Assembly: GCA_002726235.1 (NCBI GenBank)
Contig: PBSN01000007.1
Coordinates: 62,001-126,000 of the forward strand
Source: Nitrospiraceae bacterium
Lineage (GTDB): Bacteria; Nitrospirota; Nitrospiria; Nitrospirales; UBA2166
Length of the DNA stretch: 64,000 nucleotides
Reading direction: 5' to 3'
A program made the translations under genes and the position numbers. Below are positions 46,101-53,700 of this stretch, piece after piece (within the stretch, counting starts at the first letter, position 1; the number at the start of each line of letters is the position of its first letter). The notes under the pieces are model-generated. The model was given only the letters and a program-made list of their open reading frames with translations. It was not told where the DNA came from and did not search any database.

Positions 46101-47291
46101 ATGGCGAAGGCAAAATTTGAGCGAACGAAGCCGCACATGAATATTGGGACGATTGGGCACGTGGATCATGGGAAGACGACCTTGACGGCGTCGATTACCA
46201 AAGTGCTGGCGGACCAGAAGTTAGCGACTTTCGTGGAATTTGGCGCGATCGACAAAGCCCCTGAAGAGCGGGAACGGGGCGTGACCATCAACATTGCCCA
46301 TGTGGAGTACCAGACCGTGAATCGGCACTATGCTCATGTGGATTGTCCGGGCCATGCGGACTACGTCAAGAACATGATCACGGGGGCGGCGCAGATGGAT
46401 GGGGCGATTCTGGTGGTGAGTGCCGCCGATGGCCCGATGCCTCAGACCCGCGAGCATATTCTGCTGGCTCGCCAAGTGGGGGTGCCGTACATTGTGGTGT
46501 TTCTTAATAAAGCCGATGCCGTTGATGACAAAGAGCTCTTGGAATTGGTCGAACTTGAAGTGCGGGAGTTGTTGACCAAGTATGATTTTCCGGGGGACGA
46601 CATCCCTGTTGTCGTGGGTTCTGCTCTGCAGGCCTTGGAAGGTCAGGATGGCGACTATGGGGCTCCGGCCATTATGAAGCTGATGGAGCAAGTCGATGCG
46701 TATATTCCCACTCCTACTCGCGAAATCGACAAGCCTTTTCTCATGCCAATCGAAGATGTCTTTACCATTTCAGGTCGCGGTACGGTGGTGACTGGCCGCG
46801 TTCAGCGTGGGAAGGTCAAAGTGGGGGAAGAGATTGAGATTGTTGGGCTTGAGGAGACCAAGAAGACTGTTGTGACGGGTGTTGAGATGTTCCGGAAGCT
46901 GTTGGATGAAGGAGAAGCCGGAGATAACGTGGGTATTCTGTTACGCGGCATCAAAAAAGATGAGGTTGAGCGGGGGATGGTTTTGGCCAAGCCGGGGTCG
47001 ATCAAGCCGCATACCAAGTTCAAATCCGAAGTGTATGTTTTGACCAAGGACGAAGGGGGGCGGCACACTCCGTTTTTCAAAGGGTATCGGCCGCAGTTTT
47101 ACTTTCGGACGACGGATGTGACGGGAGTAGTGGAATTGCCGGAAGGGGTGGAGATGGTGATGCCGGGGGACAACGTGACCTTTCGTGGGGATTTGATTAC
47201 CCCTATTGCGATGGAAAAGGAACTTAGATTTGCTGTCCGGGAAGGCGGCAAGACGGTGGGTGCTGGTATCGTGACGGAAGTCATTGAGTAG
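46101..47291 (+). CDS. tuf: Elongation factor Tu
   Basis: [24 protein letters not shown] and NKAD. Confidence 0.99.
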
Positions 47292-47329
47292 CCCTGAAAC
47301 CGCCTGAGAGAAATGGAAGGTAACGTGCA

Positions 47330-47479
47330 ATGCGCACAATCATAGCCCTAGCCTGTACGGACTGTAAACGGCGCAATTATTCGACCATGAAGAACAAGAA
47401 AAATGATCCCGATAGGTTGGAACTAAAGAAATATTGCCGTTTCTGTCGGAAGCATGTTCCTCACCGGGAAGTGAAATGA
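47330..47479 (+). CDS. rpmG: 50S ribosomal protein L33 (Zn-binding type)
   Basis: Manual translation: [49 protein letters not shown] (below the ORF-track cutoff). Confidence 0.95.
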
Positions 47480-47632
47480 GTGATAGGGGGAAGGTCGGCT
47501 GTTAGGTTTTTGGAAAAGCGGGAAAGCCAACGAACTGGTATGGCATATGGACGTATTTGAAGTGCTAGGTTGGGGGCACCCTTTTCCCATCTTTGCTGAT
47601 AGCTGACGCTGATCGCTGACCTGCTAATTCTA

Positions 47633-47708
47633 GGGGGCATGGTGTTAATGGCTAGCATGTCGGTCTCCAAAACCGAAGGTCCGGGTTCGAGACCTGGTGC
47701 CCCTGCCA
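47633..47708 (+). tRNA. tRNA-Trp(CCA)
   Basis: TCGGT-CT-CCA-AA-ACCGA; CCA end; usual position before secE. Confidence 0.93.
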
Positions 47709-47763
47709 GCACACATGTGTGGATTTTCGTGAGCATCAGTAGTCGTTAGAACGAGGCATACGA

Positions 47764-47958
47764 GTGATAAAACGGTGGTATTTAGCGATCGCGACGTTCC
47801 TTGACGAAGTCAAGGGTGAGTTGCGAAGAACCAGTTATCCCTCACGAAAGGAAACTGTTGGATCAACGGGAGTTGTCCTGATTTTTGCCGTGATCATGTC
47901 GATATTCCTAGCGCTCGTTGATGCCTTGCTCGTCAGGATTATTGCCATTGTCATCTGA
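47764..47958 (+). CDS. secE: Preprotein translocase SecE
   Basis: FLDEVKGELRRTSYPSRKE plus a single TM. Confidence 0.92.
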   Translation: MIKRWYLAIATFLDEVKGELRRTSYPSRKETVGSTGVVLIFAVIMSIFLALVDALLVRIIAIVI

Positions 47959-47959
47959 T

Positions 47960-48514
47960 GTGAAGAAAGAGGCGGTTTCTGGGAAACCCAAGAAGTGGTA
48001 CGCAGTGCATGCCTATGCGGGGTTCGAGCCCCAAATCTGCGAAACTGTATTGCTACAGTGCAAGCGGCAGGGGATGGAAGACACAATTGATGAGGTTTTG
48101 GTTCCAACGCACGAGGTTGTCGAGATCAAGAATGGAAAAAAAAGGACAAGTGACCGAAAATTTTTTCCTGGGTATGTTCTTGTACACATGGCAATGACTG
48201 ATGACGCTTTGCAGCTTATAAAGGCAATACCGAAAGTCACGGGGTTTGTAGGTGGAGGAGCCGTTCCTTTCCCGTTGACTGATGAAGAGGCAGAAACACT
48301 ACTAAAACAGATTGATTCTGGCGTGAATNTGCCTCGGTCGCAGGTAGTGTTTAGCCAAGGGGATACTGTTCGTGTCATCGATGGACCATTTCTTGGTTTC
48401 AATGGCTTAGTGGATGAGGTGGACGATGAACGAGGCAAGGTGAAAATTCTGGTGAGTATTTTTGGACGATCGACGCCTGTTGAATTAAATTTCCTTCAGG
48501 TGGACCCCTCTTAA
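47960..48514 (+). CDS. nusG: Transcription factor NusG
   Basis: WYAVHAYAGFE, FFPGYVLV, KOW motif VRVIDGPF and SIFGRSTPVEL; start uncertain. Confidence 0.95.
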   Translation: MKKEAVSGKPKKWYAVHAYAGFEPQICETVLLQCKRQGMEDTIDEVLVPTHEVVEIKNGKKRTSDRKFFPGYVLVHMAMTDDALQLIKAIPKVTGFVGGGAVPFPLTDEEAETLLKQIDSGVNXPRSQVVFSQGDTVRVIDGPFLGFNGLVDEVDDERGKVKILVSIFGRSTPVELNFLQVDPS

Positions 48515-48548
48515 TGCCCCCTTAACCTGATATGTAGGCATGTAAAAA

Positions 48549-48977
48549 ATGGCAAAAGAGCTAGTGACACAGATTAAGCTTCAGATTCAAGCCGGAAAGG
48601 CTACGCCGGCACCGCCTGTGGGTCCGGCGCTTGGGCAGCATGGATTGAATATTATGGAGTTTTGCAAAGGCTTTAACGCGCAGACTCAAGGTCAGGATGG
48701 AAGCATTATTCCGGTGGTTATCAGTGTGTTTAAGGACCGGTCGTTTACGTTTGTGACCAAGACTCCGCCAGCCTCAGACCTTTTGAAGAAAGCGGCTGGG
48801 ATTATCAAAGGATCGGCCGTGCCAAATAAAGATAAGGTTGGTACCGTGACGGCAGCGAAAATTGAGGAGATTGCACGGCAGAAACAGGAAGATTTGAATG
48901 CGGCAGACCTTGCTGGGGCGATAAAGATTATTGAAGGGACGGCGCGAAGTATGGGTCTTGTGGTGGTTCCAACATAG
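48549..48977 (+). CDS. rplK: 50S ribosomal protein L11
   Basis: [18 protein letters not shown] and GTARSMG. Confidence 0.98.
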
Positions 48978-49001
48978 GGAGTGTTTCGGAGGAGTTAGGG
49001 G

Positions 49002-49694
49002 ATGGGTAAGAAATTCACTGCCGCATTGGCAAAAGTTGAGACGCGATTGTATGGCCTTGAAGAGGCTATGGATTTGGTGATGTCTTTGGCTTATACGAAA
49101 TTCGACGAAGTGGTTGACTTAGCAATTCGCTTGGGGATTGACCCAAGGAGAGCTGACCAGATGGTACGAGGCACAACTCTTCTTCCTCACGGAACAGGAA
49201 AAAATGTGAGGGTTCTGGTCTTCGCAAAAGGGGAAAAAGAGGCGGAGGCTCGCGATGCTGGCGCAGACATTGTTGGTGCAGAGGATTTAGTCGAGAAAAT
49301 CCAAGGAGGATGGTTGGAATTTGATCAAGCGATCGCGACGCCAAATCTTATGGGCATGGTCGGAAAATTGGGGAAAGTTCTTGGTCCCCGTGGTTTGATG
49401 CCAAATCCAAAAACTGGAACTGTAACGCTTGATCTTGCCAAGGTGATTGGTGAAATTCGGAAAGGCCGTGCTGAATTTAAAACGGACAAGACCGGAAACA
49501 TACACGTCACTGTTGGTAAGGTGTCCCTCCCCCGAGGCAGTCTCTGTGAAAATGCTAACGCGATACTTGAATCAATTGTGAAAGCGAAACCGGCATCAAG
49601 CAAAGGGCGTTATCTTAGGGGGGTTTCGCTTTCCTCTACGATGGGGCCGGGGGTTGCACTTGATCCGGTCGCGGTTACGAAACGGCATACGTAA
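49002..49694 (+). CDS. rplA: 50S ribosomal protein L1
   Basis: [27 protein letters not shown] and SSTMGPG. Confidence 0.98.
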
Positions 49695-49730
49695 CCATAT
49701 TTTCCCCGCCTCTGTTGGAGAAGTGACAGA

Positions 49731-50663
49731 ATGAAGAAAGAGATGAAGACGCAGGTTGTTGCAGGTTTGAATGAGAAGTTTTCTCGGGCTCAGGTGGCAA
49801 TTCTGACCGAGTTTAGCGGAGTGCCGGTGGGGGAGATGACTGAGCTTCGTAGGCTTTTTCGCGAGGCAAAGGCTGAGCTGAAAGTAGTGAAAAATCGTCT
49901 TGCCATACGGGCAGCCGAGGATACACCACTTGCCATTGCGACGGATCGTTTTCGTGGCTCTCTTGCGGTTGCTCTTGGCTATGATGACCCCATCGTTCCT
50001 GTGAAAATTCTGAACGACTTCATTACGAAAGAACGTCGTCGTCAACGATTCACCATGCGTGCTGGGGTCATCGAAGGACAGATTCTTGAGGCGAAGGCGT
50101 TAAATGATTTGGCAAATTTGCCATCTCGCCACCAGTTGCTGGGAATGTTTCTCTCAGCGATGCAGGGATCGATTCAGGGGTTTGTCAGTGTGTTGTCGGG
50201 ACCGGCACGAAGCTTAGTATATATGATCAGTGGGCTCATTGAACAAAAGAAAGGAATGGGAGAGATGGCTGATGTGAAAGAAACAAGCACATTAACAGAT
50301 GACGATATTCTTGGCGCGGTTGAGCAGATGTCTGTCCTTCGGTTGTCCGAATTGGTAAAAAAAATTGAGGAACGTTTTGGGGTCACTGCGGCGATTCCCA
50401 TGGCAGCTCCTGCCGCAGGAGGGGCAGCCGCTCCTGCAGAGGCTGAGGAGAAAACCTCATTTGATGTGGTGTTGAAGAGTGTAGGTGACAAGAAAATTCA
50501 GGTTATCAAGGCGGTGCGAGAGATTACGAGCCTAGGCTTGAAGGAAGCAAAAGATCTTGTAGAAGGGGCACCGAAACCTGTGAAGTCAGGTGCCGCAAAA
50601 GATGAGGCGGAGACGATAAAGAAAAAGCTAGAAGAGCATGGTGCAACGGTTGAGATTCAGTAA
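49731..50663 (+). CDS. rplJ-rplL: Fused 50S ribosomal proteins L10 and L7/L12
   Basis: L10 ([15 protein letters not shown]) continues in frame, with no stop, into L12 ([33 protein letters not shown]). Confidence 0.9.
50265..50663 (+). CDS. rplL: Probable nested free L7/L12 from an internal start
   Basis: In-frame ATG (MADVKET) at the domain boundary, preceded by AAAGGAATGGGAGAG. Confidence 0.65.
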
Positions 50664-50708
50664 CTGTTGTTGGTCGCTGCGTATGAAAGTGGGGGGAGGC
50701 TTCACACG

Positions 50709-53700
50709 ATGACGTCCAGCCATANTGCCATCAAACGCACGGACCTTTCCAAGATTCGTACCTGTCTTGAGGTTTCATCCCTTGTTGAGATGCAAACGCG
50801 TTCCTATGCGGACTTTTTGCAATTGAATGTGCCTCCAGAGAAAAAGGAGGATCGGGGGCTTCAAGCAGCACTAACGAGTGTCTTTCCCATCGCCGATTAT
50901 AATCGCTCGGCTACGCTTGAGTTTGTAAATTACTCTCTCGGGGACTCGAAATATAGCGCTCGGGATTGTATCGAGTACGGCATGACCTATGCCGCTTCAC
51001 TGCGGATTCGTATCAGGCTCATCGTTCTTCGTAAAATGGAACAAGAGGAGCCGCAGGAAGTTCGTGATGTACAGGAAGTTCGTGATGTAAAAGAACAGGA
51101 AATATATGTTGGTGAATTGCCGTTGATGACGGAACGAGGCACGTTCATTATCAATGGAACCGAACGCGTCATCGTCAGTCAGCTCCACCGGTCACCAGGT
51201 GTGACGTTCATGCATGACAAAGGGAAAACATATGCGAGCGGAAAGGTTTTGTTTTCCGCCAGAATCATCCCATATCGTGGCTCTTGGCTTGATTTCGAGT
51301 TCGACACCAGAGATGTGTTGTACGTGAGGATTGACCGAAGAAGAAAAATGCCTGCAACGGTTTTGCTGAAAGCCTTTGGCTACTCCACGGATGAAATTCT
51401 CAAGATGTACTATTCGGTAGAAGAAATCACGGTCGTAAAAGGGAAGCTCTTTCGGAAGTTGGATGTGGAAATACATGCTGGTATCCGCTCCCCAGCCGAT
51501 GTTCGTGACAAGCGCTCGGATGAGCTCATTGTGCGTGAAGGCCAAAAGCTGACGCGATCTAGTATTCAAAAGATGATTTCTGCGGGGGTAAAAACGGTTC
51601 CCATTGACCCTGAAGCGTTGGTGGGGCGGACTACCTTGACTGAGATTGCGAATACGGCGAGTAAAGAGATTCTCGTCGAGAAAAACACCGTGATTTTGGA
51701 GGCCGCACTCGAGGTGTTGCGGAGTGGCAAGGTAAATGGTTTTAAAGTGATCTATGTTGCGCCCGCTGCCGTGCCGGTTATACAGATTACCTTGGCTGCG
51801 GAGAAGTCCAATTCCACAGATGAAGCCATGGTTGAAGTGTATAAACGGCTTAGGCCAGGCGAGACTCCAACCGTCGAGACTTCCCGCGCGCTCTTTGAGA
51901 ACACTTTTTTTAACTCGAAGCGTTATGATCTTTCGCCTGTTGGACGGTTAAAAATTAATAATCGGCTGGGGCTTGATGTTCCTCTCGGTGACCGGACCCT
52001 CATGGCTAAGGATATTGCCGAAGTTGTCCGCTATCTTGTTTCGTTGAATGAGGGCAAAGGGGATGTCGATGATATCGATCATCTCGGAAACCGGCGAGTG
52101 AGAGCTGTGGGAGAATTATTGGAAAATCAGTTCAGGCTCGGTTTAGTGTGGATGGAGCGGAATGTCAGAGAGCGGATGACCCTGTCGGATTTGGAAATGG
52201 CTCTTCCTCACGATGTTGTAAATGTGAAACCGATTATTGCAGCCATCAAGGAGTTTTTCGCAAGCAGCCAGCTGTCACAGTTTATGGATCAAACGAATCC
52301 GCTTGCCGAAGTCACCCATAAACGCCGGCTTTCCGCACTTGGTCCAGGGGGACTCACTCGGGATAGGGCGGGATTTGAAGTTCGTGATGTCCATCCCTCT
52401 CACTATAGTCGGATTTGTCCCATTGAAACTCCTGAAGGGCCAAACATTGGTCTTATAACCTCGCTTGCAACATATGCCAGAATTAATCACTTTGGTTTTA
52501 TTGAGGCTCCCTATCGTCGTGTGTCCAATGGGGTGCTTACGGATGAGGTAGAGTATTTGTCTGCGGTTGGAGGTGAACGGAACACCATTGCGCAGGCGAA
52601 TTCTCAGGTAGATGGCAACGGACGCCTGAGTGCAGAAAGCGTGTCAGCGCGTTTTGAAGGAGACTTTGTTCTTGTTCCTCCCAAGAAGGTGGAATACATG
52701 GATGTTTCGCCAAAACAGGTAGTGGGCGTGGCTAGTGCGCTCATTCCTTTTTTGGAACATGATGATGCCAATCGTGCCTTGATGGGGTCCAATATGCAAC
52801 GACAGGCTGTGCCCCTTCTTTATCCCAAAGCACCCGTCGTTGGAACTGGCATGGAACCGATTGTGGCACGAGATTCTGGGTATGTGATTCAGGCGAGCCG
52901 TGCTGGCGTGGTTGAAAGTGTTAGTGCAACTCGAATTGTTATAAGTGCGAAGTCCGAGGGCGCTTCGAAAAATGATGTTGGGTTGGATGTATATCATCTG
53001 TTGAAGTTTCAGCGGTCCAACCAGAATACCTGTCTCAACCAGCGCCCAGTTGTTTATCGTGGGCAACAGGTGACAAAGGGACAGTTGCTTGCTGATGGAC
53101 CGTCCATTCATTACGGGGATTTGGCACTTGGAAACAACGTCCTCGTCGCATTTATGCCATGGGGAGGGTACAACTTCGAGGACGCGATTCTGATGAGTGA
53201 ATCGCTGGTTCGCGAGGAAAGCTTTACATCCGTTCACATTGACGAATTTGACATTGAGGCACGAGAAACAAAGCTTGGGAAAGAAGAAATTACTCGCGAC
53301 ATTCCCAATGTTGGGGAAGAAGCGTTACGCAATCTTGATGAGAGCGGGATCGTCAGGATCGGTGCCGAGGTAAAAGCAGGCGATATTCTGGTTGGGAAAG
53401 TGACGCCAAAAGGTGAAACTCAACTGACTCCTGAAGAGAAGCTACTGCGTGCCATTTTTGGAGAAAAAGCTGGAGATGTGAAAGATACCTCGCTGACCGT
53501 TCCTCCAGGGGCTGAGGGTATTGTTGTCAACATCAAGGTTTTTTCTCGAAGACGTTCTAATGATGATGATTGGGCCAAGCTTTTTGAGAATGAAGACCTG
53601 AAGGCACTCCAACGAGATCACCGAGATGAAGTTCGGACTGTTGAAGAAGAGGGAAGTCGAAAAAGGCGTGTCCAATTGATTGGAATGCAGATAGGCCAAG

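Follow-up and report, generated by a model that had tools for sequence, protein, structure and literature searches.

The window analysed here is a 64,000-nucleotide stretch of a metagenome-assembled genome (MAG) assigned to a Nitrospiraceae bacterium (contig PBSN01000007.1). Its + strand carries, in this order, tRNA-Trp, secE, nusG, rplK, rplA, a 310-codon ORF and rpoB. The ORF, also on the + strand, begins with the ATG at 49731, ends with the TAA at 50661-50663 and encodes ribosomal protein L10 followed by L7/L12, with zero in-frame stops between the two parts. A single 310-aa ORF joining L10 and L12 had been described in the initial annotation, and the ORF list, the sequence and the Pfam and NCBIfam matches agree on it. 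The locus had been placed at 49695-50663, which is right at its end and wrong at its start: 49695 is the first base of the spacer behind rplA, and the ORF starts at 49731. The position of the fused ORF between rplA and rpoB is the same in 30 loci. The features are as follows.

47633-47708, + strand: tRNA-Trp
48549-48977, + strand: rplK
49002-49694, + strand: rplA (L1), from the ORF list; its stop ends at 49694 and anchors the spacer measurements
49695-49730, + strand: rplA-rplJ spacer, 36 nt, with GGAG at 49717-49720, 10 nt 5' of the rplJ ATG
49731-50663, + strand: fused rplJ-rplL ORF, 310 aa and stop, sole copy in the genome
49731-50255, + strand: L10 part, residues 1-175, globular rRNA-binding domain and C-terminal helix (NF000955; solved L10 chains)
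50127-50255, + strand: L10 C-terminal helix (alpha8), residues 133-175, predicted docking region for L12 dimers, of the long type (1zav_A alignment; AF2 model)
50247-50264, + strand: junction AAG AAA GGA ATG GGA GAG, the putative SD region of the nested L12 start (purine-rich motif in 30/30 loci)
50265-50663, + strand: nested L7/L12 cistron, Met179 to stop, 132 aa (ATG in 30/30 loci; TIGR00855; solved L12 chains; weak RNA structure)
50298-50378, + strand: L12 N-terminal dimerisation and L10-binding domain, residues 190-216 (PF16320 at 191-236; AF2 helices)
50379-50459, + strand: Ala/Pro/Gly-rich L12 hinge, residues 217-243 (sequence; non-regular in the AF2 model, pLDDT below 50)
50460-50660, + strand: L12 C-terminal factor-binding domain, residues 244-310 (PF00542)

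Both parts of the protein are assigned by family models. In Pfam, the L10 domain covers residues 1-97, L12_N residues 191-236 and L12_C residues 244-310; PF00466 scores 82.9 bits against a cut-off of 22.8, and PF00542 matches residues 244-310 with an E-value of 6e-31. The NCBIfam L10 equivalog NF000955 covers residues 5-173 (155.9 bits against 85; profile positions 2-167 of 168), and the L12 equivalog TIGR00855 covers residues 186-309 (154.1 bits against 84.4). The rplJ part passes the curated bacterial uL10 models above their cut-offs, whereas the archaeal L10 models reach 23-28 bits against cut-offs of 331-381, and the L10 part is therefore not an archaeal-type uL10. The rplL part passes the curated bL12 models with N-terminal domain, hinge and C-terminal domain all present. 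The source genome (1.87 Mb, 27 contigs, 90.65% complete) has one L10/L12 locus. No second rplL or rplJ is found in it, and the other genomes of the order give one match each, split cases aside.

The L10 part aligns over its full length to the solved chains 1zav_A, 4v63_BJ and 5o60_I. The L10 chains of Thermotoga, Thermus and Mycobacterium, which are 173-180 residues long, are matched over their whole extent, while alignments to the 165-166-residue chains of E. coli and Bacillus end near residue 150. No gap interrupts the alignment of residues 122-173 with residues 127-178 of the Thermotoga maritima chain 1zav_A, which has 180 residues. These alignments assign the L10 helix to the long type with three dimers. 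The three segments that the initial annotation had recognised in this helix lie at residues 136-170, and the gapless alignment puts them in a helix of the Thermotoga type. In 2005 Diaconu et al. are said to have found three L12 dimers on this L10 helix in the 1ZAV crystal, whose L10:L12 stoichiometry we take to be 1:6. Davydov et al. reportedly treated L12 copy number in 2013, with three L12 dimers for the Thermotoga-type helix. The nested L12 aligns to solved L12 chains from its residue 9-11 onward and has 8-10 extra N-terminal residues, which together with residues 176-178 form a linker of about 14 residues. In the solved-structure search with the L12 part, the short L12 fragments of 1ZAV are not among the matches listed.

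The protein was also modelled as an AF2 monomer from a 31-sequence alignment. The model is divided as follows.

Residues 1-120: L10 body, pLDDT 80-89
Residues 133-175: predicted docking helix (helices 133-144, 149-152 and 158-175), low confidence from residue 146
Residues 176-189: junction, predicted coil
Residues 190-198 and 202-216: L12 N-terminal helices, low confidence
Residues 217-243: hinge, non-regular, pLDDT below 50
Residues 244-309: C-terminal domain, pLDDT about 45-62

Between residues 146 and 248 the pLDDT stays below 50, which is expected where a part folds on a partner, and the monomer model thus says nothing on docking of the tethered domain in cis. The alignment and the predicted helices at 133-175 agree that the L10 docking helix is complete to its end; L12 docking is its predicted role.

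The rplA-rplJ spacer measures 35-37 nt in the 5 loci of the window's genus and 12-103 nt over the 30 loci of the order. It is about 70 nt in unfused relatives of the same class (L064 and L069) and about 220-240 nt in unfused Nitrospirota of other classes (L034 and L040-042), so that it shrinks stepwise from other classes to the same class to the order. The Rfam scan of 46500-51500 gave no family at E <= 1 except the tRNA, and no L10 leader (presumably RF00557). None was found in 9 related and outgroup loci, including unfused ones with spacers of about 220-240 nt, and the scans therefore say nothing on regulation. The initial annotation had counted 36 nt between rplA and rplJ and had seen in this no room for an L10 leader. 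The count is confirmed and no Rfam leader is present, but the lack of room is not specific to the fusion, the spacer of unfused relatives in the same class being only about 70 nt. Downstream, the likely rpoB ATG at 50709 follows the L12 stop after about 45 nt (50664-50708); the corresponding distance is 43-45 nt within the genus and 47-131 nt in the other families. With its short spacers and the 45-nt gap, the whole rplKAJL-rpoB cluster is unusually compact. Within rpoB, a direct repeat lies inside an acidic insertion of the N-terminal region (about 51000-51080, residues about 125-140).

Integrity and distribution of the open frame

An assembly or sequencing error that deleted the rplJ stop from this MAG would produce the same picture. 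Ambiguous bases do occur in the window, in nusG (47918-48514) and at the start of rpoB (N at 50726), where they appear as X in the translations; they are a sign of a consensus MAG, and the fused gene is untouched by them. With N bases present elsewhere in the window, the junction was checked against Logan contigs of other studies. Contigs from three independent marine metagenome studies bridge 50240-50270 with 0 differences (X3 record 3, 49997-50562; X4 record 12, 50064-50419; X6 record 16, 49910-50370). A check of reads over this interval had been named beforehand, and no stop precedes 50265 in any of the three. The same open frame is common to more than 200 genomes, among them many single-contig assemblies. 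An artefact is refuted by the independent contigs and the order-wide open frame, and we regard it as extremely improbable. The window's sequence occurs in runs from marine and hydrothermal-vent metagenomes. In X4, one contig of 82 nt has an additional T behind 50389 and, before 50376, a loose end, whereas the longer X4 contig over the same place has neither; the short contig probably comes from a related strain or reflects an error of assembly. The contig of an RNA library, X19, covers 49600-50031 only and ends short of the junction, so that it cannot show a transcript across it.

The fusion occurs throughout the order Nitrospirales. Of the nearest 41 genomes (4 families and 13 genera of one order), 38 have a stop-free match from query residue 1 (or 10) to 309/310. 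A sample of the phylum with 301 genomes contains a stop-free spanning frame in 72 of 75 genomes of the order, and among the rows listed for the 225 other Nitrospirota, a list that ends before 275 low-scoring rows, there is no stop-free spanning match. By our own count, 47 rows outside the order span both genes with 1-5 in-frame stops each, and in the other genomes the two genes lie in separate frames. In four outgroup rows the open frame looked suspiciously long, and inspection showed stops between the two genes in every one. The survey of Nitrospirota for the missing stop that the initial annotation proposed finds the fusion throughout the order. The annotation had supposed that the fusion may be shared by other Nitrospira, and it is; its range proves wider, taking in all four sampled families as well as MAGs of Chloroflexota and Armatimonadota.

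A larger sample of the order comprises 251 genomes from families f1 (5, including the window's own), f2 (113), f3 (112) and f4 (21). A single match at E <= 1e-84 was obtained in 230 of the 251; of 247 matches in total, 150 were read row by row and are all stop-free, and the others were judged by their E-values. Shorter matches in 10 genomes comprise 9 truncations at contig ends and one frameshift (G426), which is located well away from the junction, in the N-terminal part of L10. The junction is covered in eight of these 10, all but G031 and G425, and the frame is open across it in all 8. No match was obtained in 11 of the 251. In five of these (G395, G235, G391, G439 and G407) the L12 family model also has no match, and in the first three the rplA search is empty as well. 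The five genomes are 95-99% complete and one is a single contig; the empty searches look like a data gap with a technical cause. One genome of family f3 (G329, about 16 Mb in 20 contigs, 98% complete) is far larger than any other in the order.

Judged from the sequences compared, the rplJ-rplL fusion is derived within Nitrospirota, and it is real, ancient and order-wide, with the internal start retained. A relative of the same class outside the order (G247) reads ...AEAG*TIDCWEGDFEMATLTNDD, with a single TAA and a 10-codon spacer in frame with rplL. From such a spacer, the loss of one stop and some shortening would give the Nitrospirales state. No stop-free joint frame was found in 27 loci from other taxa, nor a fused rplJ-rplL in 79 diverse metagenomic loci, neither set being a random sample. 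The 79 background loci are metagenome matches to the Chloroflexota protein P0134 and represent distant, ordinary rplJ-rplL pairs with 36-46% identity.

Fusions are also found outside Nitrospirales. When 1.84 billion cluster representatives were searched, 183 proteins matched at E <= 1e-30, and among the best 150 of these, 22 proteins of 297-332 aa match the whole query in one stretch, 21 of them with 33-45% identity. Ten clusters were looked up. Eight are singletons, P0132 has three members from different sources (Armatimonadota) and P0134 has four (Dehalococcoidia/Chloroflexota). A search with P0134 gave at least 120 proteins of 278-370 aa, all with L10, L12_N and L12_C, and those that are named are mostly from Chloroflexota. 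A Met follows the Gly/Glu-rich junction in 21 of 22 aligned sequences from outside the window. P0134 and P0285-P0399 make up a large fused L10-L12 family (about 305-325 aa) from Dehalococcoidia/Chloroflexota MAGs, and P0132, P0279 and P0280 a smaller cluster from Armatimonadota. The Chloroflexota and Armatimonadota proteins are probably independent fusions of the same kind; this origin, like SD conservation outside Nitrospirales, is read from protein sequences only. Seven further proteins of 593-1066 aa (P0130, P0131, P0140, P0143, P0144, P0180 and P0184) match the L12 C-terminal domain in 5-8 separate stretches and are tandem arrays of this domain.

The probable internal start of L12

The nested L12 has its own ATG and SD and no upstream stop in the 310-codon frame. 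Its in-frame ATG (50265-50267, Met179) follows AAG AAA GGA ATG GGA GAG at 50247-50264, and the junction in the window reads ...GAA CAA AAG AAA GGA ATG GGA GAG ATG GCT... The initial annotation had pointed to this ATG behind a purine-rich SD, and both elements prove to be conserved. The start-site comparison covers 30 related loci from all four families: an ATG stands at the homologous position in 30/30 and a purine-rich SD motif precedes it in 30/30, counts that overstate independence and come from statistics without phylogenetic correction. The motif is retained though the residues it encodes vary between families. The sequence is AAG AAA GGA GAA GGA GAA ATG (KKGEGEM) in f2, f3 and one f4 genus, AAG AAA GGA ATG/ACG GGA GAG ATG in the window's genus and AAG GAG GAT TCC ATG (KEDSM) in most f4 loci, where the residues are KEDS/KEEP as against KKGEGE in f2 and f3.

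The predicted duplex of the junction with the anti-SD sequence CACCUCCU has an energy of -7.0 kcal/mol in the window and of -6.3 to -10.6 kcal/mol across the 30 loci, and the junction SD is stronger than the SD of rplJ itself in 25/30. In the window's genus only 2 nt separate the GGAG core from the ATG, and AAAGGA, which is better spaced, is weaker. The idea that the junction is the strongest anti-SD site of the ORF was ruled out, with 0-12 equal or stronger sites elsewhere in each ORF over the 30 loci; SD strength alone is therefore not diagnostic, and conservation is argued instead. Codon use and RNA structure provide further indications. The first glycine codon of the junction is GGR (GGA or GGG) in 21/21 loci of the KKG type, while GGR makes up 20-77% in 14 other conserved glycine columns. 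A 40-nt segment centred on the internal ATG folds more weakly than the ORF mean in 30/30 loci (mean z +1.24), and a median of 7% of segments are as open. The conserved ATG and SD, the glycine codon bias and the low RNA structure point to a working initiation site. A conserved in-frame start with a ribosome-binding site inside a longer ORF, the arrangement by which nested isoform genes are recognised, is what is found here. A promoter and terminator scan of 47500-51000 gave no more promoter-like sites than shuffled sequences, and none convincing inside the fused gene.

Proposed products of the fused gene

The sequence itself shows the fused frame and how widely it is conserved, together with the conserved signals for an internal start, the presence of only one gene copy and the long type of helix. 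The best explanation for these features, one that the sequences support well and that we consider quite probable, is that the gene yields both an L10-L12 fusion and, by internal initiation, free L12, giving a stalk with one tethered L12. The ancestor of Nitrospirales would have lost the rplJ stop together with most of a short rplJ-rplL spacer, and the original initiation region of rplL (SD and ATG) would have been kept as sense codons inside the 310-codon frame. Initiation at 49731 would then produce an L10 that carries one complete L12 past the end of its docking helix by way of a coil of about 14 residues, and initiation at 50265 would produce free L12 to supply the remaining copies for the three dimer sites. 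We infer the making of both products, and likewise the place of the tethered copy. The most economical composition would be the fusion with 5 free L12, in which the tethered N-terminal domain would pair with a free L12 on the last site; the fusion with 6 free L12 would also be possible.

If only the 310-aa fusion were translated, a protease could cut the coil at the junction and set an ordinary L10 and an ordinary L12 free. Residues 176-189, which form the junction, are indeed predicted as coil, and their sequence varies between families as an exposed linker would; some processing may occur. This same variation (KKGEGEM against KEDSM) leaves no conserved cleavage motif, however, and a polyprotein does not account for the ATG in 30/30 loci, the SD nucleotides that are kept or the low RNA structure. 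It would also yield the two proteins 1:1. With a three-dimer L10 helix and no second rplL, one L12 per L10 cannot fill the helix and free L12 is needed, which makes a polyprotein unlikely. L10 might instead still be released on its own despite the missing stop codon, if ribosomes underwent programmed frameshifting onto a stop in another frame or dropped off close to the A-rich junction, in which case the fusion would be rare. In the window, counted from the internal ATG, one alternative frame has TGA at -25 and +5 and the other has it at +10, and the junction has the A-rich run CAA AAG AAA. Nine of the 30 loci, including most of genus g3, have no off-frame stop within -60 to +30, and no canonical slippery heptamer is conserved. 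Frameshifting to an off-frame stop was rejected on the ground that such stops are not conserved, and this explanation as a whole is very improbable.

Both products could also be made with the tethered L12 having no special role, if loss of the stop was harmless and became fixed by drift. The step is a small one, given a sister lineage with one stop and an in-frame 10-codon spacer, in which a single mutation and a small deletion suffice. The junction residues are poorly conserved between families, and fusions elsewhere include sporadic singletons (8 of the 10 clusters looked up have one member). Against neutral tolerance, no genome of the order whose junction could be read has regained a stop, and large fused families arose in Chloroflexota too. 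A stop could return by many single mutations, and the persistence of the open frame therefore argues for at least weak selection. Neutral tolerance shares its mechanism with the preferred explanation, an L10-L12 fusion made alongside free L12, and that the tethered copy is simply tolerated is unlikely.

Comparison with known systems

Comammox bacteria and the main nitrite oxidisers belong to Nitrospirales. All translational GTPases are recruited by the L10-L12 stalk. To our knowledge, its composition of one L10 and separate L12 dimers is taken to be invariant among bacterial ribosomes. No paper that describes an L10-L12 fusion in nature turned up in full-text literature searches, subscription papers being outside their scope. 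Many such proteins of 310 aa are deposited in GenBank and IMG under no other name than '50S ribosomal protein L10' or 'L7/L12' (for example HAN48040.1, OYT25058.1, MBA5864372.1 and TRZ97560.1). For an order of environmental importance, such labels can lead marker-gene phylogenies, estimates of completeness and the quantification of proteins astray. With moderate confidence we propose that in Nitrospirales, and independently in large groups of Chloroflexota and some Armatimonadota, the stalk base protein is covalently joined to one L12 as a convergent counterpart of P0. The stalk would consist of the fusion and 5 free L12, an odd count; synthesis of L10 would be obligatorily coupled 1:1 to that of one L12, the rest would be supplied by internal initiation, and the classical feedback through an L10 leader would be dispensed with. 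If true, the tethered-L12 stalk is a natural experiment on how many free L12 copies are needed and on stalk assembly. It would inform how one ORF that gives both proteins sets the L10:L12 stoichiometry, and would bear on whether the P0 solution evolved again in bacteria.

The canonical rplJ-rplL operon and its L10(L12)4-6 stalk (E. coli, B. subtilis and T. maritima) have the same proteins, the same domain set and the same gene order, rplK-rplA-rplJ-rplL-rpoB. As in the canonical operon, the L12 of Nitrospirales has its own SD and ATG, and its L10 helix is of the long type of Thermotoga and Thermus. Unlike the canonical operon, the Nitrospirales locus has no stop and essentially no spacer between the two genes, so that every L10 chain would carry an L12. 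The rplJL leader of E. coli and B. subtilis is long. These operons are autoregulated through the leader transcript, according to a passage in PMC4538822. The Nitrospirales locus differs in having a 36-nt spacer before rplJ and no Rfam L10 leader.

Nested isoforms made by in-frame internal initiation are found in bacteria for IF2 (infB), for the long and short forms of cheA and for clpB. The fused gene resembles these in being one ORF with a second in-frame SD and start, the short product being the C-terminal part of the long one. It differs from them in that its two products would be subunits of one complex, at about 1:5, and in that the internal start would be the ancestral start of a once separate rplL. 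Among gene fusions, rpoB and rpoC are joined in Wolinella succinogenes and Candidatus Adlerbacteria, as mentioned in a passage of PMC11515920. That fusion is likewise lineage-specific and unites adjacent genes of the same conserved cluster whose products belong to one complex. It joins subunits used 1:1 and needs no internal start, whereas the L10-L12 fusion joins subunits used at about 1:6.

In archaea and eukaryotes, P0 is a uL10 with its own C-terminal factor-binding tail, and the free stalk proteins use the same element to recruit translation GTPases. This stalk has the composition P0(P1-P2)2, as given in part of PMC3794596. The stalk base of Nitrospirales would resemble P0 in principle by carrying one factor-binding element in cis. 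Unlike P0, it has as its appended part a whole bacterial L12, with dimerisation domain, hinge and globular C-terminal domain, and not a short acidic P-protein tail. The added part is not homologous, and the Nitrospirales form would be a recent gene fusion inside one bacterial order. By analogy, then, the likeness of the L10-L12 fusion to P0 is one of function and not of membership.
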